The notes: generated by a model from the letters alone, not told the origin. Counted from the first letter of the stretch, positions 1 through 10,512 are shown. The stretch: 10,512 bases of DNA from an uncultured bacterium (GCA_964619725.1 CAZUFC010000206.1:1-10512), one strand, 5' to 3'. Numbers and translations: made by a program.

Positions 1-90
1 GAGGTAGGGGTATTTGTTATACGTTGATTGAGTAAATCCGCAGCCTGACGCAGTACTGGGGAAAATTCGCCGTTTATGGACAAAAACTAA
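1..90. repeat. Probable partial short interspersed repeat (MITE/REP-like), cut by the window start
   Basis: Apparently non-coding, with a mini-hairpin GTAT-TTGTT-ATAC at 10-22 followed by ...GCCTGACGCAG...GAAAATT..CCGTTTATGGACAAAAACTA. From memory (no search run) this resembles the centre and one arm of ~150-bp palindromic repeats in Desulfobacterota-type genomes. The other arm is not in the window. Confidence 0.4.
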
Positions 91-376
91 ATAGGTGAGC
101 GGCGCATGACATTGATGAATCATCAGATCAGGCTCAAGGATTTAAAATAACGCTGTGGTCAAAAGTCGCTCATTGTTAAAAATTCATATTTAAGAGTTCT
201 TGCAGTGTTGGGCTCGACATGCCTGGAGTCCTGACCCGATTGAATGCTTTATCGTTCGCCGTAGAAAATCTGATAAACCCTTTCAGGATTTTTAAATTCA
301 TCTATCCTGCCTTATCGCTTCCAGAGATGGTCCGATCGCCTGTTCTCAATTGCCCGGTTTCACCAGTGCGTTAATC

Positions 377-562
377 TTAACAACGATTCCAGCGTCCTCC
401 TGCAGAATGCCGTCCTCGGCAGATGAGCAACCTCTTCCGGGATGGAAAAATCAATTTGGAGAGTCTTTTTTCATGCTGCGCATCGTCAAGTATATCCAGA
501 ACGGTTCGGATTTTATCCCTGTAACGTCTATGGAATTCCAGCAGACTATCGTCGCTGATCAT
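377..562 (-). CDS. Small hypothetical ORF (61 aa), possibly a frameshifted remnant
   Basis: Co-directional with the giant gene and 53 nt downstream of it. A purine-rich GAGGAAGG lies about 12 nt before the ATG, and the N-terminal half looks like a charged helix. No recognisable family. Confidence 0.3.
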   Translation of the reverse strand: MISDDSLLEFHRRYRDKIRTVLDILDDAQHEKRLSKLIFPSRKRLLICRGRHSAGGRWNRC

Positions 563-590
563 TGTCGATTGCTACCTTCCTCAGATGGCT

Positions 591-606
591 GATGATCATG
601 ATCATC
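591..606. repeat. Perfect 16-bp palindrome GATGATCATGATCATC
   Basis: Equal to its own reverse complement, contains (TGATCA)x2, and lies 9 nt past the stop codon of the giant gene. Confidence 0.8.
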
Positions 607-615
607 CGGCGAACA

Positions 616-3600
616 TTAATAAAACACTTTCATGATAGCGTGAACTTTTTCCGATACATTTCCGAAAGGGTCTTCCGCTCTGAAGCCTATGCAGTACATT
701 CCATCAATCATGAGACGGTCGTTATAACCTTTTCCATCCCAGTAGAAGGTTTTTTCTCCCTGTGAAATGCCGGTCAGCATATATTCATTAACCAGGAGGT
801 TATTTTGGTCTCTGACAGAGACGATGATGTCTGAACTTTTCGATAATGTATATGTAAATTTACAAGGCGTACTGGGTTCAAGTTGATTCGGATTTTGAGG
901 AGTGAAAAAGTTAGGTTCCACGGAAACGTCGTCAATTACAGGATCACAGGCAGCAATAACAGCGTTATCCGACAATGCCCACATAAGGACGGCCATGACG
1001 TAGGAGGAATCGAAAGGAGCTACGGCGCCATTGTCAGCGGTTCCATCCCAGGTTATGACTCGGGGACCGCTTCTAAATGGTTTTCTGGTATGGATAGTCT
1101 TAATTCGTTCTCCTGTTCCGCCGCTGTAAGGTGAAACGTACGTTGTAATTTCCGCGGGAGTATCCAGCGTAAAAGTTGCAGTGAGGTAATCGTCTTCGAG
1201 AGGATTATAGGCAGAAGAATAGGTAACAGTTGGGAATATTTGCTGTCCGGCGCTTCCCGTTGTATCCAGGCGGTAAGTTTTTCCGCCCACGGTATATTCG
1301 ATTATGAAAAAATAAACGCCAGAGGCAACGAAGTTTTCATTGTCGTTTTTTCCATTCCAGACATCAGAGTAGTAACCGGGTGTTCTTGATTCATCATCGA
1401 CCAGGGTGCGTATATGTTCTCCTTTTCTGTTTATAATTTTCATAGTAATCGTGCTTGTGCCTGAAAGGGAGGATTCAATAGTCATAGTTTGGCCGACGGT
1501 AGGATCGAAAATTTCCGTACTTCGATGAGCGGTCAATCCTAAGTCGACATCTAAAAGTATGCGGTCAGTATCTGTAAGATCATCGTCATCTGTGACGCGC
1601 AGGGTTGGTTCATAAGTTCCCGGTTCTGTGAAAATAAAAAAAACGGAACCTGTTTCAGTGGAACTCCAGTCGTAAGTTCCGTCGCCGAGAAAATCCCATT
1701 CAAAGAGTTCAATGTTTCCATCAGTATCGGTTCCTTCACCCATAAAAGTAACGGTCAGAGGAGCAATACCGGTTTTCGGATCGGCATCGGCAAGGGCCGT
1801 CGGGCTGCCCGGAGGATTAACGTTTATCCAAAGCGCTGCGGTACCCGACAATAAATCGTTATCCGTTACTTGGAACACGGCATGATAATCACCCGCATTT
1901 TCGTAGGTGTGTAAGACATCGCCTTGAAATGAAGAGTTCCAATCGTATTGTCCATCTCCGTTGAAATCCCACTCGAACAATTCGATCGTCCCATCAAAAT
2001 CCGATCCATAACCAGTAAAAAAGACATTCAAAGGCGGAGGACCTGTGAAAACTGAAGCATCTGCATAAGCTGAGGGCGCAGAGTCGCTTTGAGTATAGGC
2101 CTCGATCTCAATTATCGCTGAATCGCTCAAACCGTCGTTATCCAGTACCGTCAAGCGAGCCTCATAAATATCGCAATCTTCGTATTCATAATTGATCGCT
2201 GATGTAATCGGACTGGAATAGTCATCTATGCCGTCGCCGTCGAAGTCCCAATAAAAGTATTCGATGGTTCCGTCGGGATCATGGCCGTTGCATACGAACT
2301 GCACAGTCAAAGGCGCCGGACCGGAGCGAGGGTAGGTGAGGGGTAAGGCGACAGGCATGCCGACAGATATTAGTACTGAGTCGTCGTCTTTCAATAAATC
2401 ATCATCTGTGATCTGGAAAAAGGCTTCATAAACGCCTCCATCAGAATAAGTATGAGCAGCCGCGCCTGTTTCGGATGAAGAGCAATCCCAATCGCCGTTG
2501 CCGTCGAAATCCCATTGGTAAAGAATGATTTCGCCGTCAGGGTCGTGGCCGGTTCCTTCAAACTCAACCGTGAGCGGTATTCCGCCCTTCACAGGATGTG
2601 CGTATGCTAGAGCAGTCGGAGCTCCACAAGGTCTTACTTCAATATTAGCGGTATCGGTATCCGTCAAACCGTCTTCATCAGTAACGCGAAGCATTGCTGT
2701 ATAGTGGTTAGGACTTAGGTAGGTATGTTGAGTATCTCCGTTTTCTGCTGATGCATATGCCCAAGTTATTCCAATGACGCAAACATCGTCGATATGCCAT
2801 ACTTGCTCCATTACCGGGGAAAAGGATGAAAGTGAAAATCGAATTCTGGTTTCTGATTGTCCGGAATAGACAGAAATATCTATGACAGAAGCAGTCCAGG
2901 AGGCCTGCATTCCCTGGTATGTCTCTAATTGTATCCAATCCGTCCCGCCATTTGTCGATATTGACGCTGAACCATGAATGCCTGATTGAAAATTGTATTT
3001 GCTAATGAATTTCAACATTGCAGTGCCGGCGGGTATCTCGAAAGAAGTCGATTCAACGGTAGTAACAGTCCCGGTGGGAGGCGGAGCTGATGATTCAGGT
3101 TTCAGTTTATCGAACATTTTTGGTTCGAACAGGCTCTGCGATTTTTCTTCTTCATATTTGTCAACAAAGTTTGTAAGAGAATGAGAAGGGGAATGGCATT
3201 CAGTCTCGGTCAAACCCCATGTCGATTCGAGTATCCATTGATCAACGCCTGATTCGAAGTCATCATAGAAAACAAATTGGTCGCCGAAATCCCATTCATA
3301 AAGCGCAACCGGAGCTTCGAAGTCTATGCCGACACCGTTGAACGTAACTTCCAGCGGAGCGTTACCGACTTGAGGGGCGGCATTAGCGTGAGCTTCAGGC
3401 GGTGAGTTGACAACTGTTATCTCTGTGCTTGTCGTATCGTTCAGATTGTCATTATCTGTAACACGGAGAGTCAAATTATAGTCGCCGACTCCTGTATAGG
3501 TATACTCAACTCCGGAATCGGTTTCAGAACCATAGTCGAAAGTGCCGTCTCCGTCGTAATCATATTCCCAAAAGACTATAAAGCCATCCGGATCGCTGCT

Positions 3601-6600
3601 GTGGTTTCCGTGCATTGCCGTCATCAACGGGTTCTGTCCGCTTGAGGGCGAAACCCATAAACTTGACGCAGGCAGGGATTTAGAGACAGTTATCGTTGCC
3701 GGAATGCTGAATGCTTTATTCGATTCTGAATCGGTTAATTCGAGAACAGGGGTGTAATTGCCTGACAAGAAATCATGATTTACATGAGCCCCGGATTCTG
3801 AAGTCCAATCGAAGATGCCGTCACCCTCAAAATCCCATTGGAATGAATGTATTCTACCGTCACCGTAGGGTGTGGACCCGCCGCCGTCGAACGTTACCGT
3901 CAAGGGTGCATTGCCGGTTGCCGGCGAAGCTTCAGACCAAATCTGGATAGGACCTGTTCGAATTAATATTGATGAAACGAAACCATGCAATCCCTGGTCA
4001 TCAGTCACCCTGAAAACAGGATTGTAAATGCCGGGCGTATCGTATGTATGATCCGCAGCGCCGTTGACAGACGATGTGAAATCCCATACTCCATCGGCGT
4101 TGAAATCCCATTGATAAGTCGTTATGTAACCATTATCGGTTCCTGTTCCACTGAAACTCACATTTAATGGAGAGTCCCCGGCAAGAGGATCGGCGGAAGC
4201 AAAAGCGAGGGGCGGTTCGTCTGCCTGAGTAAATCCCGGCAGAAGGTCCAAATCCCATGGATAAAATATTTCAGGGAAATTCATTAAAATGTTTCCGCCG
4301 GAGGATAATTTTGAAAGAGAATGATTAGAATGATCAACCGCCCATACATTGAGAGAACTCATATCCTGAACCAATCCATAGGCGTCACCGAATTCCGTTT
4401 CACTGATGAAAGTCCCGTCATTACTGATATGATATATACTGTTTTTATCAAGATCAGACACCCATGCGCCGTTGTCAGGGTCGGCAGCGACTGCATGAGG
4501 ACATTCGAAGCCGGGTATCCTCATCAGTTCCGAGGAACCGTCCGCTGCAATCAAGACGAGTGAATCATTATCTCTATCTGCTGCCCAACAGGCGCCGTCA
4601 CTCTGGTTAACGGCAATACCTACAGGATGAAGGAAAGTATTGAGCCGGGCTGTTTCCGTTCCATCGACAGCCAGCTTGACGACAGCATTAGCGCCGTGGT
4701 CCGCAACCCACACGCTTCCGTCGGATTGATCCACATCCAGCCACAATGGATTATCGAATCCATCTACTCTCTGGAGTTCCTGTCCCTGAGAATCCAGCAG
4801 CACTACCTGATTGTGTTGACGGTCCGTTACCCAGCAGCTTCCGTCAGCATGAAAAACTCCCGTATCCCAGGGCTCTTCAAATCCATCCAACCTAAAAACT
4901 TCGTTACCTGATGCACCCAGTTTGACTACCTGGTTATTCATACAATCAGCGACCCAGACGCTCTCATCAACCGGATCGCAGGAGATGCCGCGAGGATCAT
5001 TAAAATCACCGGTTTCCCACTGCCAAACCCCGCCCGAATACCGGTCTACTTTGCCTGTATCGGTCCCTGTCGGAGGAGCTGCCGTTTTTTTCGTTCTCAC
5101 TGTGTGTTCAAATAAAGGCGAGCAATTTTTGGGGTTGGTTTTATGCGAATATTTCTCACCATATTTGTTCGTCACCCAGACGGATTCAGCCCCATAAGAC
5201 GCGTAATCGATATATAAGATTGTCGTATCTGTATCCTGGTAACCGTCGTCGTCTGTGACCCTTAGAACAGCCTGAAAAATGCCGTTTTCTTCATAAGCAT
5301 GCGTCGTTACGCCTGAAATAGTTGAAGTCCATTCATAACTTCCGTTGCCATCAAAATCCCATTCGTATAGCGCAATCGCTCCATCATCAGTTCCAGAGCC
5401 GAGAAAATCCAGGATTTGTCCCACATAACCATAAGCTGGAACTGCCTGTGCCGAAGCATTCGGGTAACCAACAGGTTTAAGCCGTATCGTGACGATTTCT
5501 TCCGCTTCCAGAAAATCATCGTCGATCGTTTTTACTCGTGGTTCATAGATATCCGGTATCATGTAAAAATGAGAAGGATCATTATGTTGGGTCGTTTCAT
5601 CATAGGTACCGTTTCCATCCCAATCCCATTGATATTGAGTTATATTTCCGTCGGTATCATATGCCTGAACATCGAAATTGACCCAAAGAGGTACGTTTCC
5701 TTCTTCAGGTTCCGCTGAAAATGACGCAATGACTGGCGGAAATAATTCTACGGAATATTCAACGAATGTCGTATAGGTCAATCCTTCGTTGTCCGTAACC
5801 CTGAAATAGGCCGTCCAACTACCTTCATCCGTAATGTTGTGGATTGTCGCACCTGTTTCGGTCGAATTCCAGTCGTACTCAGAATCGCCGTTAAAATCCC
5901 ACTCGTAAAGAGCAATCGTTCCGTCAATATCAGTTCCCTCACCATAAAAAAGATTTTCGTTCCGTTTCAAGACATCTTCCGGCATTGGAGAATAAATTTC
6001 CGCTGCAGGCATTGATTGCGCTTTAACTAAAACATTATCCGTCGATGAATAACCTTCATCATCAGTGACTCTAAGCGCGGCATGAAATATGCCTGGTTGT
6101 TCATAGATCGTTGAAGTGTTGGGCTGATCCGGAGAAGAGTATCCCCAGCCGGTTGATGTTAAACTCACGTCATCAAGTCGCCAGCCGTATCCGGCATGGA
6201 AATCAAACGTTACATATTTAAAGCTAATTTTCGTTTCGGAGCATCCCGAATACCCCGTGACGTCAATTTGCTCCAATATCCAGTAATCACAATTTTCTGA
6301 ATAATACGCTAATTCTGTCCAACTGGCGCCGTTGTCGGTAGAAATATCAACTTGACATGAGTCGCCGTCAGCAAGGATACGCTGATTAAAAAATTTCAGG
6401 CTTGCAGGCCCCGCCGGCAGGTTAAACGCCATAGAGGTTGCGGATGCGGATGTTCCTGTGGGAGGCGGGGCGGAACAAGTCGCTGAGAGAGGATCAAATA
6501 TGACCGATGCCAAGTTTCTTTTTTGATGTGTGTTTTCAGAGTATGAGAAAAGAGAATGTGTCGGCGAGCGGCAAATTTCCGTATTTAAGCCCCACGGAGC

Positions 6601-9600
6601 ATCAAGCGTCCATTGATAAGTTCCTGATTCAAAGTCGTCGAAGAATGCCTGGCTCGTTCCATAGTCCCATTCATACAATTCTATCGTGCCGTTAGGATCA
6701 TAAGAATATTCACCTATCAAATTCACGTTCAGCGGTGTAAGTCCCTGTTGGGGTGAAGCTTCAGCGACAGCGACCGGTAAACCGAAGTCTACTTCAATAC
6801 ATATCGTATCCATATCGGTAATGCCGTCGTCATCGGTTACTCTGAGTATTGCAGTATAAACCCCCACTTCTTCATAATACGCTTGAGCATCAGGTTCATT
6901 GGGGGAAAGGTGAGACCAGTTACTTGATCGAATAGTTACATCGTCGATAAACCAGGCTTCTCCAGCAGGAGGTTCTTCATAAATGAATCTGAATCTTATG
7001 CATGTATCGGAAGCGCCGGTATAGGCGGAGATATCAATTTCAGCTGATATCCATGAACTTTGGTTTCCCGATATATTCATGAGTTCATGCCAGTCGGTTC
7101 CGCCGTTTGTGGATATGTCGATGTGGCCCGAAACGCTGTTTTCCATTGTATATTTGTGATAAAAGCGCAATTTTCCGGGTCCCGGTGAAGTCTCAAAGAG
7201 GGGCGAAACGGCAGTAATTGAAGTTCCGGAGGGCGGTAAAGCGGATGCCTTTGGAAGAAAATCTCCAGATGAATATAAGACCTCCATAATTTTGGATTTT
7301 ATTCCCGCCCGGGCTCCCGAACTTGCTTTCAGACAATTCACAGGAGAGTGAAAAGTTTCGGTAGTCAACTCCCAATTTTCATCCAGGGTCCATTGGGAAA
7401 CGCCAGACTCATAGTCATCATTAAATGCTGAATAGTTACCATAATCCCACTCATATAATTCTATCGTACCGTTAGGATCATAAGAATCTTCTCCCATCAA
7501 ATTCACAGCAAGCGGCACAGCTCCGGAATCCGGCAAGGCATCTGCTACGGCTTGGGGAGCTCCCAGTTCCACGGTTATTTCAGTCGTATCCATATTCTTG
7601 TTATCGTCATCATCCGTGACTCTCAGCACAGCAGTGTAAGTTCCCTCCTCAGCATAAGCAGTAGTCGTATTGGGATAAATAGAAGAGGAATATTCCCACT
7701 CCAAGTTCAAGACGGTTATATCGTCAATGTTCCACAAGCTGTTGATTTCAGGTTCGCCGGATTCGAAGACGAATCTTATTCTTGTCGCGGAGTATCCCGT
7801 ATATTCAGATATCATGATTTCTTCTTTCGACCAGGATGTTTTCGTCCCTGTCAATTCAATCAATTCCGTCCAGTGTGCGCCGCCGTCAGTGGATACATCG
7901 ACATGACCCGAATCATCACCTGTAAAAGAATATCTATGGAAAAACATCAATTCCGCAATGCCGGTATTCAACGCGAATGAAAGAGATTCAGCCTTATTGG
8001 CAGGAGCTGTAGGCGGATAGGCGGATCGAGCGGCAAACAGGGAACTTAACATTTGTAAAACATCAGCCCCTTTGCCGTTTTCAGCTTGGCCCTTTTGGGA
8101 GTTAATCCTCAGGCAATGTGCAGGAGAATGATATACTTGATCGGTCAATTCCCAGTCACTGCCCAGGTTCCACTGTGAATTTCCCGATTCACAGTCTTCT
8201 CTGAATGCCGGGGGTGCATCTGAAGACCATTCATAGAGTTCGATAGTCCCGTCCGGGTCATACGAATTTTCTCCGATCAGAGCGATCTCTTCATTGATAT
8301 AGGTTACTTCAGGTTCTGCCTGGGCCACAGCGACGGGATAATTCGCCGGAAAAACAGAAATAAAGAGATAAGCCGTGTCCTGTTCATCATCATTATCCGT
8401 GACTGTTAAGGCGGCATAATATTGACCGGCCTGATCGTATTGATGTTGAACGTCTCCGCTCGCTTGTCCGCTCCAATCATACTCGCCGTCCCCGTCAAAA
8501 TCCCATTGGAAAAGTTCGATATACCCATCCGGGTCAGTTCCGGAACCTGAAAAATTGACCGTTAAAGGAGCATGTCCCTGGACCGGCGCGGCTTCAGCAA
8601 AAGCAGACGGGGCGTCTCCATGCGCATCTATTTCCAATGCGTCTTCAGCCGTCTGACCGTCATTGTCTGTTACTCGAAACCGCGCAGTATAATCACCCGG
8701 TTCTGCATAAAGGTGCAGCAATGGTTCAGAAGTCGTACTCGTCCAATCGTATTCGCCGTCGTCTTCAAAATCCCATTCATACAATACTATTATTCCATCA
8801 GGGTCTGAACCATCACCGATTAATTCCACCAAAAGCGGCGCCGGTCCGCCGGTCGGGTTTGCTTGAGCAGTTGCGTCCGGAGCAGATTTTAAAACCTCAA
8901 CGGTAACCGTATCGGTTGCCGTAATGTTCCCAGTGTCGGTGATTTTTAAAGTCGCATCGTAAATACCGTAACGGCTGAATACATGATCGACCGTCATAGT
9001 ATTCTGAACAGCCGGTTGGTAGAAATCATAAAAACCGTCTCCGTCGAAATCCCATTGATAACTCTCTATATGTCCGTCTACAGGATCAAAAAAGGAACCG
9101 GAAAACGTCACTGAAAGCGGTGCGTTTCCCTCAGCAGGAACAGCATCGGCAAACGCAGCCAGTATGCCTACCCTGACTATCTGAGAATAATCTTCATCCG
9201 TCGAGTAATTGTCGTCGGTTACTCTGAACGCCGGATTAAAAATCCCGCTTTCAGCGTATGCAAATGCAGTGATGCCCGTCGACTCCGACGTCCAGTCATA
9301 TATGCCGTCTCCATCGAAATCCCATTCGTAAAGTATGATTATACCGTCTGAGTCCGTTCCCGTTCCATGAAAGTTAACCGTTTCACCTGTTTGCACCTGG
9401 ATAGGATAGACCTGCGCGGCAGCGCTCGGCGCGCCTGTCGGAGGAACTGATGAATAAACTTCTACTGATGTGGGATAGTAAAATCCTGAGCTTCGCAATA
9501 CTTCAACTCCAGCTACGATTATTTTCACGACTTCGTGATGACCGTAATCCGCCACCCAGCAACTACCGTCCCGGGGATCGACTGATACCGAATAGGGATT

Positions 9601-10353
9601 GTTCATTTCGGTTATTTCAGATAAAAATGAACCTGACGAAGAAAGCCTCACGATCCTGTTGTTTGAGGTATCCGCCGCCCAACATGAACCGTCAGCAGGA
9701 TTAACAGATACATCATGGGGAAAATTGAAACCTCCCCTTCTCAAAATTTCCGTCGTTCCTGAAGGAGATAATTTGACTATCCGGTCATTACCGGAATCCG
9801 CCACCCAGCACGTGCCGTCAGAATTATTCACCGATACGGCAAGAGGATTGTTAAAACCGGATTTTACTCTGTGATTACCTGCATCACCGCTGACGTCATA
9901 TCCGTCCGGTATGACAGCTGACAGAGAATATATCTTCCCGCTTCCGGAATCAGCCGTCCAGACCACACCGTTGTCCTGGTTGACGGAAACATCATTGGGA
10001 TAATTGAATCCGCTTATGCGTATATGATGGCCGGTACAGATTCCGACGTCGTATCCGTCTGGAACGTCAGGCAACAGCTTCACTACTGAATGACTGTTCC
10101 AATCCGCTATCCATACCTCGCCGGTATTTTCATTCACATCCACCGATCGGGGATACGAAAATCCCGTGACTCGGACCTGTTCCTCACCTTTCTCCGAAAT
10201 TTTAACTGTTTCGTGAGTATGATGACAGACTATCCAGACGCTGCCATCGCTGTTGTCCGCGCTTACCGCAATCGGTCCATTGCATAAATCAGACAAACGC
10301 AATTTTTCTTCGCCTGAAGACAACAATAGCTTGACGACGTCGTCAGCCTCCAT
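616..10353 (-). CDS. Giant multidomain extracellular/surface protein (NHL beta-propellers, 18 PKD domains, 4 MAM/jelly-roll-like domains, 3 C-terminal FlgD-Ig-like domains); 5'-incomplete
   Basis: Uninterrupted 3245-codon ORF with TAA at 616-618. Recurrent PKD motifs (Y[EQ]WDF[DNE]GDG...YxxxGxYxAxLxVTDxDG), NHL blade motifs (WVADxxNxxVVKL), FxDDFESG...STxGGxxW...WxIDDV domains and WDG[KT]xxxG-type FlgD-Ig motifs. The frame is also open upstream to 10503, so 10353 is only the first ATG. Confidence 0.95.
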   Translation of the reverse strand: MEADDVVKLLLSSGEEKLRLSDLCNGPIAVSADNSDGSVWIVCHHTHETVKISEKGEEQVRVTGFSYPRSVDVNENTGEVWIADWNSHSVVKLLPDVPDGYDVGICTGHHIRISGFNYPNDVSVNQDNGVVWTADSGSGKIYSLSAVIPDGYDVSGDAGNHRVKSGFNNPLAVSVNNSDGTCWVADSGNDRIVKLSPSGTTEILRRGGFNFPHDVSVNPADGSCWAADTSNNRIVRLSSSGSFLSEITEMNNPYSVSVDPRDGSCWVADYGHHEVVKIIVAGVEVLRSSGFYYPTSVEVYSSVPPTGAPSAAAQVYPIQVQTGETVNFHGTGTDSDGIIILYEWDFDGDGIYDWTSESTGITAFAYAESGIFNPAFRVTDDNYSTDEDYSQIVRVGILAAFADAVPAEGNAPLSVTFSGSFFDPVDGHIESYQWDFDGDGFYDFYQPAVQNTMTVDHVFSRYGIYDATLKITDTGNITATDTVTVEVLKSAPDATAQANPTGGPAPLLVELIGDGSDPDGIIVLYEWDFEDDGEYDWTSTTSEPLLHLYAEPGDYTARFRVTDNDGQTAEDALEIDAHGDAPSAFAEAAPVQGHAPLTVNFSGSGTDPDGYIELFQWDFDGDGEYDWSGQASGDVQHQYDQAGQYYAALTVTDNDDEQDTAYLFISVFPANYPVAVAQAEPEVTYINEEIALIGENSYDPDGTIELYEWSSDAPPAFREDCESGNSQWNLGSDWELTDQVYHSPAHCLRINSQKGQAENGKGADVLQMLSSLFAARSAYPPTAPANKAESLSFALNTGIAELMFFHRYSFTGDDSGHVDVSTDGGAHWTELIELTGTKTSWSKEEIMISEYTGYSATRIRFVFESGEPEINSLWNIDDITVLNLEWEYSSSIYPNTTTAYAEEGTYTAVLRVTDDDDNKNMDTTEITVELGAPQAVADALPDSGAVPLAVNLMGEDSYDPNGTIELYEWDYGNYSAFNDDYESGVSQWTLDENWELTTETFHSPVNCLKASSGARAGIKSKIMEVLYSSGDFLPKASALPPSGTSITAVSPLFETSPGPGKLRFYHKYTMENSVSGHIDISTNGGTDWHELMNISGNQSSWISAEIDISAYTGASDTCIRFRFIYEEPPAGEAWFIDDVTIRSSNWSHLSPNEPDAQAYYEEVGVYTAILRVTDDDGITDMDTICIEVDFGLPVAVAEASPQQGLTPLNVNLIGEYSYDPNGTIELYEWDYGTSQAFFDDFESGTYQWTLDAPWGLNTEICRSPTHSLFSYSENTHQKRNLASVIFDPLSATCSAPPPTGTSASATSMAFNLPAGPASLKFFNQRILADGDSCQVDISTDNGASWTELAYYSENCDYWILEQIDVTGYSGCSETKISFKYVTFDFHAGYGWRLDDVSLTSTGWGYSSPDQPNTSTIYEQPGIFHAALRVTDDEGYSSTDNVLVKAQSMPAAEIYSPMPEDVLKRNENLFYGEGTDIDGTIALYEWDFNGDSEYDWNSTETGATIHNITDEGSWTAYFRVTDNEGLTYTTFVEYSVELFPPVIASFSAEPEEGNVPLWVNFDVQAYDTDGNITQYQWDWDGNGTYDETTQHNDPSHFYMIPDIYEPRVKTIDDDFLEAEEIVTIRLKPVGYPNASAQAVPAYGYVGQILDFLGSGTDDGAIALYEWDFDGNGSYEWTSTISGVTTHAYEENGIFQAVLRVTDDDGYQDTDTTILYIDYASYGAESVWVTNKYGEKYSHKTNPKNCSPLFEHTVRTKKTAAPPTGTDTGKVDRYSGGVWQWETGDFNDPRGISCDPVDESVWVADCMNNQVVKLGASGNEVFRLDGFEEPWDTGVFHADGSCWVTDRQHNQVVLLDSQGQELQRVDGFDNPLWLDVDQSDGSVWVADHGANAVVKLAVDGTETARLNTFLHPVGIAVNQSDGACWAADRDNDSLVLIAADGSSELMRIPGFECPHAVAADPDNGAWVSDLDKNSIYHISNDGTFISETEFGDAYGLVQDMSSLNVWAVDHSNHSLSKLSSGGNILMNFPEIFYPWDLDLLPGFTQADEPPLAFASADPLAGDSPLNVSFSGTGTDNGYITTYQWDFNADGVWDFTSSVNGAADHTYDTPGIYNPVFRVTDDQGLHGFVSSILIRTGPIQIWSEASPATGNAPLTVTFDGGGSTPYGDGRIHSFQWDFEGDGIFDWTSESGAHVNHDFLSGNYTPVLELTDSESNKAFSIPATITVSKSLPASSLWVSPSSGQNPLMTAMHGNHSSDPDGFIVFWEYDYDGDGTFDYGSETDSGVEYTYTGVGDYNLTLRVTDNDNLNDTTSTEITVVNSPPEAHANAAPQVGNAPLEVTFNGVGIDFEAPVALYEWDFGDQFVFYDDFESGVDQWILESTWGLTETECHSPSHSLTNFVDKYEEEKSQSLFEPKMFDKLKPESSAPPPTGTVTTVESTSFEIPAGTAMLKFISKYNFQSGIHGSASISTNGGTDWIQLETYQGMQASWTASVIDISVYSGQSETRIRFSLSSFSPVMEQVWHIDDVCVIGITWAYASAENGDTQHTYLSPNHYTAMLRVTDEDGLTDTDTANIEVRPCGAPTALAYAHPVKGGIPLTVEFEGTGHDPDGEIILYQWDFDGNGDWDCSSSETGAAAHTYSDGGVYEAFFQITDDDLLKDDDSVLISVGMPVALPLTYPRSGPAPLTVQFVCNGHDPDGTIEYFYWDFDGDGIDDYSSPITSAINYEYEDCDIYEARLTVLDNDGLSDSAIIEIEAYTQSDSAPSAYADASVFTGPPPLNVFFTGYGSDFDGTIELFEWDFNGDGQYDWNSSFQGDVLHTYENAGDYHAVFQVTDNDLLSGTAALWINVNPPGSPTALADADPKTGIAPLTVTFMGEGTDTDGNIELFEWDFLGDGTYDWSSTETGSVFFIFTEPGTYEPTLRVTDDDDLTDTDRILLDVDLGLTAHRSTEIFDPTVGQTMTIESSLSGTSTITMKIINRKGEHIRTLVDDESRTPGYYSDVWNGKNDNENFVASGVYFFIIEYTVGGKTYRLDTTGSAGQQIFPTVTYSSAYNPLEDDYLTATFTLDTPAEITTYVSPYSGGTGERIKTIHTRKPFRSGPRVITWDGTADNGAVAPFDSSYVMAVLMWALSDNAVIAACDPVIDDVSVEPNFFTPQNPNQLEPSTPCKFTYTLSKSSDIIVSVRDQNNLLVNEYMLTGISQGEKTFYWDGKGYNDRLMIDGMYCIGFRAEDPFGNVSEKVHAIMKVFY
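619..1538 (-). other. Three tandem FlgD-Ig-like domains at the C-terminus
   Basis: Each has an F[DT]P/YNP start, a strand such as IINRKGEHIRTL, and a W[ND]G[KT]xxx...Y motif. Trp codons at 1357-1359, 1048-1050 and 739-741 are spaced exactly 309 nt apart. Confidence 0.75.
1541..2625 (-). other. PKD domains 15-18
   Basis: WDFxGxG cores with Trp codons at 2512-2514, 2248-2250, 1969-1971 and 1696-1698. Confidence 0.9.
2630..3399 (-). other. Fourth split PKD with inserted MAM/jelly-roll-like domain (insert about 2776-3270)
   Basis: LYEWDFGD-QFVFYDDFESG...HSPSHSL...ISTNGGTDW...WHIDDVCV, then the PKD resumes (W...HTY...YTAMLRVTDEDG). Confidence 0.85.
3400..4215 (-). other. PKD domains 11-13
   Basis: Cores WDFNADG (4108-4110), WDFEGDG (3835-3837) and WEYDYDGDG (3568-3570). 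Confidence 0.88.
4240..5190 (-). other. Beta-propeller 2 (7 NHL-like blades; blade 1 carries a ~33-aa insertion)
   Basis: Blades VWVTN, VWVAD, CWVTD, VWVAD, CWAAD, AWVSD and VWAVD, with closing strand FYPWDLDLL. Confidence 0.85.
5200..6009 (-). other. PKD domains 8-10
   Basis: WDFNGD, WDWDGNG and WDFDGNG cores with Trp codons at 5899-5901, 5626-5628 and 5359-5361. Confidence 0.88.
6010..8340 (-). repeat. Tandem triplication (780-nt / 260-aa period) of a PKD domain split by a MAM/jelly-roll-like domain
   Basis: The GExSYDPxGTIELYEW Trp codons at 8227-8229, 7447-7449 and 6667-6669 are exactly 780 nt apart. 7441-7506 and 6661-6726 differ at 7 of 66 nt. Inserted domains lie at about 7711-8205, 6931-7425 and 6160-6645. 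Confidence 0.88.
8341..9432 (-). other. PKD domains 1-4
   Basis: WDF[DE][GD]DG cores with Trp codons at 9322-9324, 9052-9054, 8773-8775 and 8503-8505, spaced about 90 aa apart. Confidence 0.9.
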
Positions 10354-10374
10354 GTCGCCGACCCATAAGTATAG
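9451..10374 (-). other. Beta-propeller 1 (7 NHL-like blades)
   Basis: Blades LWVGD, VWIVC, VWIAD, VWTAD, CWVAD, CWAAD and CWVAD, each linked by GFxxPxxVxVN-like segments, with closing strand FYYPTSVEVY. Confidence 0.85.
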
Positions 10375-10460
10375 TCCCCGCCCCGTATAACCGAAATTCT
10401 TCGTCAGTATCTGAAGATCAAGATCATCGACGTATCCGTCTTTGTTTAAATCAGCATCCG
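10354..10460 (-). other. In-frame upstream coding extension of the giant gene, containing one dockerin-type EF-hand repeat (10390-10458) and the start of propeller blade 1
   Basis: Manual in-frame translation gives DADLNKDGYVDDLDLQILTKNFGYTGRGLYLWVGD-MEADDVVKL. DLNKDGYVDDLD fits the 12-residue Ca-binding loop (D1,N3,D5,D9,D12) and is followed by LxILxxNFG, typical of dockerin repeats. LWVGDMEADDVVKL matches the other blades. Confidence 0.85.
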
Positions 10461-10512
10461 TGTCTTTCCGGCAAGCGTGCTTAACAATCCCTGCCCGCCG
10501 TGGCTATCATTG
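10461..10512. mobile_element. Candidate end of an insertion sequence (or chimeric contig end) interrupting the giant gene
   Basis: Dockerin similarity stops abruptly at about 10460. Beyond it the frame reads PRRAGIVKHACRKDT and hits TAG/TGA at 10504-10509, with no ATG/GTG/TTG. The segment starts (G)TGTCTTTCC on the + strand and contains a promoter-like motif. No transposase or second IR is visible. Confidence 0.35.
10481..10510 (+). promoter_or_regulatory. Sigma70-like promoter pointing out of the window
   Basis: TTAACA (10481-10486), an 18-nt spacer and TATCAT (10505-10510). Each hexamer matches TTGACA/TATAAT at 5 of 6 positions. Confidence 0.35.

Follow-up and report, generated by a model that had tools for sequence, protein, structure and literature searches.

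The 10,512-nucleotide stretch of DNA from an uncultured bacterium analysed here (GCA_964619725.1 CAZUFC010000206.1:1-10512; hereafter the window) is occupied nearly throughout by one open reading frame (ORF), on the minus strand at 616-10353, encoding a protein of 3245 amino acids (aa), P0001, in which a Pro-Pro heptapeptide, [ST][AS].PP[TS][GA], occurs six times. Five copies terminate insertions of 24-34 aa, comprising a variable spacer and the motif (together termed the cassette), in two unrelated folds, i.e. four PKD-nested MAM/reelin-subrepeat-B-like jelly rolls and an NHL propeller; the sixth lies in an inter-domain linker. The reading that is favoured, albeit tentatively and with rather less than even confidence, is that the heptapeptide is a short linear motif that is kept by selection and displayed on disordered loops derived from a linker.

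The six copies, which an original prediction made from the sequence had pointed out, are at aa 301 (SSVPPTG), 777 (SAYPPTA), 1037 (SALPPSG), 1294 (SAPPPTG), 1757 (TAAPPTG) and 2422 (SAPPPTG). Their xPPTG parts lie where that prediction had placed them, at 9433-9447, 8005-8019, 7225-7239, 6454-6468, 5065-5079 and 3070-3084, respectively (minus strand, as for all P0001 features given below), and the spacing that it gave for the four jelly-roll copies, 70, 70, 67 and 70 residues after the PKD tryptophan, is correct when counted to the x of xPPTG. The observation of six motifs is real and statistically solid; in 3000 composition-preserving shuffles of P0001 the mean number of motif matches was 0.006, with no shuffle having two or more. 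In the homologue set used for motif and loop counts (261 proteins, 572,710 aa), [ST][AS].PP[TS]G occurs twice and the shorter PP[TS]G 21 times, for the most part where a PKD domain begins with a sequence of the type 'A.PPSG.APL.V'.

The proposal that the loops are true insertions in two unrelated folds is borne out by gaps in the aligned jelly-roll and propeller homologues, and the loops are specific to the lineage of P0001. In the jelly rolls, the variable loop is followed by SAYPPTA in module 1 (8005-8115, aa 747-783), by SALPPSG in module 2 (7225-7335, aa 1007-1043, with the spacer MEVLYSSGDFLP), by SAPPPTG in module 3 (6454-6555, aa 1267-1300), and again by SAPPPTG in module 4 (3070-3180, aa 2392-2428). 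Alignment of these modules with 20 modules from eight homologues gives a 24-column gap at the loop in every homologue. With a hidden Markov model of the P0001 modules, 201 complete domain instances were located in 186 of the 261 homologues; in every instance fewer residues span the loop, the difference being 10-97 (median 23) in the 195 split matches and 8-20 in the 6 single-span matches. An exhaustive HMMER search against 1.84 billion representatives returned 1067 matches at E<=0.001; among the 150 listed, where the top identity is 41%, none is a cassette-bearing relative, and those in which the best stretch covers the whole query, 14 in number, are shorter by 8-22 residues. In the second fold, an insertion of 34-38 aa is present in the first β-hairpin of propeller 2 (5053-5166, aa 1730-1767; TAAPPTG at 5065-5085), where comparison with the homologues P0002 and P0003 reveals one clean 34-residue gap between 'SVWVTN' and 'V.RY'. 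In a MAFFT alignment of P0001-P0005, the cassettes and one extra module are the only P0001-specific insertions of at least 6 aa.

By contrast, the copy at aa 301, in the segment comprising the end of propeller 1 and its linker (9433-9507, aa 283-307, VEVLRSSGFYYPTSVEVYSSVPPTG), aligns ungapped to P0002-P0005. The site itself ('VEVYSSVPPTGAPSAAAQVYP') corresponds, without gaps, to the linkers YAEPPYNAPSA (P0002), YAEPPIGSPQA (P0003), KGEPIMGAPSA (P0004) and SAQKNPTAPTA (P0005); SSVPPTG at this position is, on the basis of the alignment, an ordinary, ancestral propeller-1-to-PKD linker and not an insertion.

It had been argued that domain duplication alone does not explain the distribution of the cassettes, but duplication does cover four of the five. 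A maximum likelihood tree was made from 28 module sequences of 11 proteins, hand-picked out of about 200 instances, with only columns at least 50% filled being kept, so that the cassette columns were excluded. In this tree the four P0001 modules form one clade (support 94/86), within a 6-row set that includes the third module of P0002/P0003 (100/98), and their branches are long (0.75-1.24, compared with a median of 0.52). Since the four modules form one clade even with the cassette excluded, one insertion followed by module multiplication accounts for four cassettes; only the propeller-2 copy is separate. The tree thus gives two insertion events, not five, the propeller-2 cassette being the second. 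The family loop motif WTDSPxGxY...N..D, which is conserved in homologous domains, is lost in all four P0001 modules, and the nearest relatives have three jelly-roll modules compared with four in P0001.

The relationship between the cassettes is apparent at the level of the peptide rather than the DNA. In 70 pairwise codon comparisons over the 7 conserved motif positions, 18 codons are identical, 36 differ synonymously and 16 non-synonymously; third positions differ in 49 of 70 cases (70%), compared with 16 of 140 (11%) for first and second positions combined, and Ser and Thr are exchanged at both hydroxyl positions of the motif. Nucleotide identity of the loops between modules is 0.31-0.44, compared with about 0.5-0.65 in the module cores. 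Synonymous divergence with retention of the residues implies that the copies are old and that it is the peptide, not the DNA, that is under purifying selection; the codon data hence indicate that [ST]-A-x-P-P-[TS]-G(-T) is held by selection of this type, in the propeller context too. These data bear directly on the suggestion that the cassettes are footprints of a small mobile DNA element inserting in frame, of the Rickettsia palindromic element or miniature inverted-repeat transposable element type. Short in-frame insertions at surface positions of unrelated folds, which are the sole P0001-specific ones of their size besides the extra module, would be in keeping with such an origin. However, apart from the 23-nt motif itself (70-83% identity, family D18), whose differences fall at synonymous third positions, the cassettes share no DNA repeat; the repeat search of the window found no inverted repeats at the cassettes, their RNA folding z-scores are unexceptional (-0.5 to +1.1), they have no Rfam match, and their GC content (0.42-0.50) is like that of the gene (0.467). 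There being no structured DNA repeat family at the cassettes, the mobile element explanation is largely refuted and is regarded as highly improbable.

Structure prediction, proposed at the outset as a check on loop exposure, gave concordant results for the two folds. An AlphaFold2 (AF2) model of module 4 with its PKD host (aa 2306-2565, 260 aa; 13-row alignment) has a mean predicted local distance difference test (pLDDT) score of 81.9; the score falls below 50 at loop residues 94-113 and 116-120, and strand 124-130 directly adjoins the motif. In a model of propeller 2 (7-row alignment) the core is mostly above 90, with the first 77 residues, including the cassette, below 50. The loops are thus predicted to be flexible and exposed, on confidently modelled cores. 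The proximity of the motif to a strand in module 4 is consistent with the main alternative, doubtful though credible, in which the role of the motif is structural only, i.e. the loop is tolerated and neutral, and SAxPPTG, a rigid Pro-Pro/Thr-Gly cap without a partner, serves to lead the chain back into the following β-strand. That common descent has placed four of the five copies in the same structural surroundings, and that neither a partner (in the window) nor a second carrier protein (in a weak profile search) was found, are also in line with a cap. However, the motif is kept in the propeller hairpin, where the geometry is different and five residues (TDTGK) separate it from the strand; moreover, the synonymous sites of the propeller copy are as diverged as those of the other copies, and the native linker is poorly conserved in the orthologues, with PP being present in two of four.

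The composition of the loops is unusual for P0001, which is strongly acidic (D+E 16%, K+R 3.8%, loops excluded). The earlier remark that the loops contain Lys/Arg in an otherwise acidic protein is upheld, with K+R being 12.1% in the loops compared with 3.8% in the rest of P0001 (Fisher p=3e-6). The total K+R of the spacers (12-17%) is near the random-codon value of 13.2%, and it was considered that the basic loops might simply have random-codon composition; this was dropped, because Lys is present 17 times in 125 spacer residues (13.6%), compared with 4.9 (3.9%) expected from random codons and 2% in the whole protein. Arg is present 4 times, compared with 11.6 expected. With Lys far above, and Arg below, the random-codon expectation, the Lys-richness is real.

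Lys-rich loops that are predicted to be disordered might be cut, and programmed endoproteolytic nicking, or a role as protease bait, has to be considered, with the motif as a recognition site or exosite and the pieces staying associated, as they do in processed adhesins. The Foldseek relatives of the jelly roll (E 1e-4 to 4e-7) are CBM22, reelin, meprin MAM, gingipain cleaved-adhesin domains and InhA, some of which, i.e. the gingipain 'cleaved adhesin' and the meprin/InhA MAM-like domains, fit with nicking, and there are documented cases of adhesins whose disordered parts carry a short cleavage motif in several copies (PMC3322551, PMC11460543). However, the fold matches are generic β-sandwich/jelly rolls (TM 0.35-0.44), none of the known cleavage motifs considered below fits, and the interchange of Ser and Thr would suit a hydroxyl-directed event better than a protease subsite. 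Nicking is considered unlikely.

With respect to the origin of the cassette, it is moderately supported, by sequence comparison, that it arose when the propeller 1 end, together with the linker, was copied within the gene. The spacer of the aa-1037 cassette (MEVLYSSGDFLP) aligns with aa 283-294 (VEVLRSSGFYYP), just before the linker motif, with a score of 32 (p=0.0012, i.e. 0.12% of 5000 shuffles, this match being one of ten tests), and VEVLRSSGFYYP is the best-scoring place for this spacer in the whole of P0001. The linker segment EVLRSSGFYYPTSVEVYSSVPPTG is 24 aa long, equal to the size of the jelly-roll insertion. The support is moderate only, because the other four spacers do not add to it. 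The five spacers are not detectably similar to each other; of 10 pairs compared, two had p<0.05, both due to flanking HSL/HCL domain residues. They have nevertheless remained rich in Lys, Ser and Glu. Tandem duplication of the strand following the motif was tried as another source and rejected, the best of 20 spacer-versus-downstream comparisons having p=0.055, which is not significant.

Events may have begun with a stretch of about 24 aa, spanning the last strand region of propeller 1 and the Pro-Pro linker (...EVLRSSGFYYPTSVEVYSSVPPTG), a copy of which entered a surface loop in one MAM/reelin-B-like module and so disrupted the conserved WTDSPxGxY loop; the cassette-carrying module would then have multiplied to four copies, and a second copy event would have placed a like segment into the first hairpin of propeller 2. 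The spacers hold S-x-[LI]-F-[DEA] strings (SLFEP, PLFEH, VIFDP and SLFAA, at 3115-3140, 5110-5130, 6490-6510 and 8030-8045). It may be that [LI][FY] in the spacers is a remnant of 'GF' in the NHL 'GF..P' of the proposed source segment.

The 5' end of the gene requires comment. The frame continues upstream of the ATG at 10353 (10354-10512), with dockerin-like homology (DADLNKDGYVDDLDLQILTKNFGYTGRGLYLWVGD), up to two in-frame stops at 10504-10509, such that homology to relatives (DADLNKDGYVDD...GRGLYLWVGD) extends upstream of the ATG. P0001 has nothing that corresponds to the first 110 or so residues of the homologues, signal peptide included, this being the only large deletion in the five-protein MAFFT alignment. 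The P0001 gene may be 5'-truncated or disrupted, or the break may be an artefact of where the contig or window ends. A further explanation, that P0001 is a silenced paralogue which has lost its 5' end and is decaying, and that the loops are pseudogene junk, accords with the stops and the missing N-terminal residues, and with the four modules being long-branched and without the conserved WTDSPxGxY loop. It is, however, hard to reconcile with a 9.7-kb frame without stop or frameshift, or with motif codons in which synonymous sites are saturated yet residues conserved. The 5' end may, moreover, have been lost only recently, or may seem lost because the window or contig stops there; decay is judged quite improbable.

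To return to the short linear motif reading, the loops would be flexible tethers presenting the motif to a trans-acting factor, which would normally act on an inter-domain linker. The first guess as to the factor, itself doubtful and made by analogy, is O-glycosylation of the invariant hydroxyl residue, as suggested by the interchange of Ser and Thr together with Ser/Thr-Ala-Pro-Pro in a disordered Ala/Pro context. Site-specific endoproteolysis at the motif is a second and less likely guess; a non-enzymatic partner that binds the motif is less likely again. It is very improbable that a transpeptidase or protease, acting inside folded extracellular domains, cuts the displayed loops at PP[TS]|G and joins the freed end to lysines of the neighbouring loop, so giving a covalently cross-linked or nicked-but-associated surface lattice. 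Were there undescribed post-translational processing of this type, the motif would be its handle, which the lineage might have spread by placing copies of its linker in loops of two different folds, a proposal which is likewise very improbable.

The oligosaccharyltransferase-type precedent closest to the glycosylation guess is PglL, which has no strict sequon, modifies Ser and more rarely Thr, prefers disordered Ala/Pro-rich regions (e.g. the glycotag WPAAASAP) and has Lys/Arg-poor targets (PMC12645811). Similarly, in the P0001 motif a hydroxyl residue is followed by Ala and Pro, in a segment predicted to be disordered and exposed, within a presumably exported protein, and Ser and Thr are interchangeable.

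Several points weigh against the motif reading or its individual steps. The P0001 loops are Lys-rich, whereas the PglL targets described are Lys/Arg-poor, and the conserved PP[TS]G exceeds any PglL preference that has been described. No partner enzyme is encoded in the window, which holds the P0001 gene only. A five-cassette profile searched against proteins of 71-2000 aa (4046 candidates) identified no second cassette protein at E<=10, though with 41 columns this profile is weak, and a part-search of the ESM Atlas for the cassette gave no usable match. With respect to linker origin, the other four spacers compared with the linker region give p=0.10-0.90; with respect to a single insertion in the jelly rolls, the long branches of the four-module clade may reflect attraction. 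The low pLDDT of the loops (below 50) is partly built in, because the loop is missing from the aligned homologues and the alignments have few rows (13 and 7). Finally, the window contains neither a start codon nor a signal peptide for the upstream continuation, and P0001 may be truncated and hence not exported at all.

The feature occurs in a single gene from a single lineage. Its interest is that, one extra module aside, the sole insertions of at least 6 aa acquired by P0001 are loops carrying one conserved heptapeptide, apparently copied from its own linker. Short linear motifs on disordered loops are well studied in eukaryotes, but are poorly charted in bacterial extracellular proteins. If an enzyme or protease does read the motif, P0001 would be a natural example of a recognition site spreading within one protein, and [ST]A.PP[TS]G(T) would be a ready-made search pattern for other substrates of the system. 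If, on the other hand, the motif is structural only, the case would be an oddity in the way that loops evolved in one uncultured lineage.

The overall architecture of P0001 comprises, in order, NHL propeller 1, a PKD array, three PKD-nested MAM/reelin-B-like modules, PKDs, NHL propeller 2 (4219-5208, aa 1716-2045), PKDs, the fourth nested module, PKDs and C-terminal FlgD-Ig-like repeats. Pfam correspondingly identifies 17 PKD_4 stretches, NHL repeats (in the two propellers), Reelin_subrepeat-B, MAM and a C-terminal FlgD_ig, with propeller 2 also being matched by Vgb_lyase. The jelly-roll host domain passes the Pfam gathering scores for PF21471 (75.8 bits, cut-off 27) and PF00629 (36.7 bits, cut-off 26.4). 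The four jelly rolls are at 7705-8208, 6925-7428, 6154-6645 and, for the fourth, 2770-3270 (aa 2362-2528), and the units of jelly roll nested within PKD are at 7594-8373, 6814-7593, 6043-6813 and 2659-3438. In these the N-terminal PKD half stops at ...LYEWD and the C-terminal half restarts at ...Y..G.Y...LRVTDDDG; both parts of the nested arrangement are confidently folded by AF2, and the same arrangement is present in homologues. A 77-nt patch is 86% identical between 6659-6735 and 7439-7515 (tandem modules 2 and 3; families D15 and D9), compared with about 50-60% for the rest, and looks like a local gene-conversion tract.

The C terminus (616-1560) consists of three repeats of about 103 aa (309-nt spacing, family D19) that match FlgD_ig and, weakly, the CHU_C type IX secretion signal domain; going by these matches, the repeats may be an export or anchoring module. 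Downstream of the gene, window positions 1-615 contain short ORFs only (<=80 aa) and have no Rfam match. Neither promoter-like nor terminator-like sites are present in the region 1-700, and there is no tRNA or tmRNA anywhere in the window.

P0001 is a member of a family of very large proteins. A word-indexed protein search gave 171 proteins at E<=0.001, the top 50 or so of which are giants with an NHL/PKD/FlgD-Ig architecture like that of P0001. Among the best 120 of these 171 matches, which were listed, the nearest are P0002 and P0003, with 48-49% identity, and the named relatives are mostly Desulfobacterales/Thermodesulfobacteriota, plus Scalindua and 'Candidatus Magnetomorum'. A scan of 185,579 GTDB species genomes identified 79 loci related to P0001, the top locus being 46% identical. 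Some giant homologues come as pairs on the same contig, namely P0004/P0005 (75,451 nt) and P0020/P0022 (2,927,812 nt), and are thus paralogue pairs within one genome.

Previously described systems offer partial parallels. The original prediction had drawn an analogy with sortases, and internal sortase-type transpeptidation or cross-linking at xPPTG would make use of the loop Lys residues as possible nucleophiles. The motifs in P0001 are, however, multiple and internal (aa 301-2428 of 3245, i.e. about 820-2940 residues from the C terminus), being followed by domain β-strands rather than by the hydrophobic segment and basic tail of a sorting signal, and the C terminus is a FlgD-Ig domain. The named relatives are of the Desulfobacterales type, these organisms being diderm, and no sortase is encoded in the window. 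The pentapeptide likeness is genuine, in that the class B pilus sortase Spy0129 accepts (E/Q/V)(V/P)PTG and VPPTG is the Cpa motif of Streptococcus pyogenes (PMC3019223); xPPTG is common to P0001 and the Cpa/Spy0128 sorting motif, and aa 301 is VPPTG exactly. It is at this level only that the analogy holds, since only one of the six P0001 motifs fits the class B consensus exactly, and that one is the ordinary linker, not an insertion; the inserted copies are YPPTA, LPPSG, PPPTG, APPTG and PPPTG, i.e. have Y, L, P, A and P first, with two breaking the T or G. Sortase-type processing is accordingly considered highly improbable, and the analogy with signal-peptidase sites, which had also been drawn, found no support.

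Among the proteases, PPEP-1 cleaves Pro-Pro bonds in CD2831 and CD3246 of Clostridioides difficile, with the consensus XXPPXP (PMC11460543, bioRxiv 10.1101/2022.11.15.516584). The likeness is in a repeated short Pro-Pro motif within a large surface/adhesion protein; by contrast with that consensus, P3' in P0001 is Gly, Ala or Thr and never Pro (0 of 6 in either register), the PPEPs characterised are from Firmicutes, and their sites are in linkers near the anchor, whereas those of P0001 are in domain loops. The LapG/DvhG adhesins, including those of sulfate reducers, have a single N-terminal [T/A/P]AAG site after a retention module and targeting helix (PMC13090378). They share with P0001 a short motif in a giant adhesin, and one P0001 copy reads TAAP; however, AAG, and hence [T/A/P]AAG, occurs in 0 of the 6 motifs, the sites are in internal loops, and no retention module is seen in P0001. 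The P97/P102 adhesins of Mycoplasma hyopneumoniae are cut at S/T-X-F|X-D/E in disordered regions (PMC3322551). The S-x-[LI]-F-[DE]-like strings in the P0001 spacers loosely echo this motif, though the D/E is at +1 rather than +2, S is at -3 in two of five, the strict motif is present in 0 of 5, and the organisms are unrelated. Rickettsia palindromic elements insert in frame into unrelated proteins, adding about 30-50 aa at the surface. The P0001 cassettes, though without the DNA-level similarity, palindrome or stable fold of such elements, are likewise in frame and at the protein surface.

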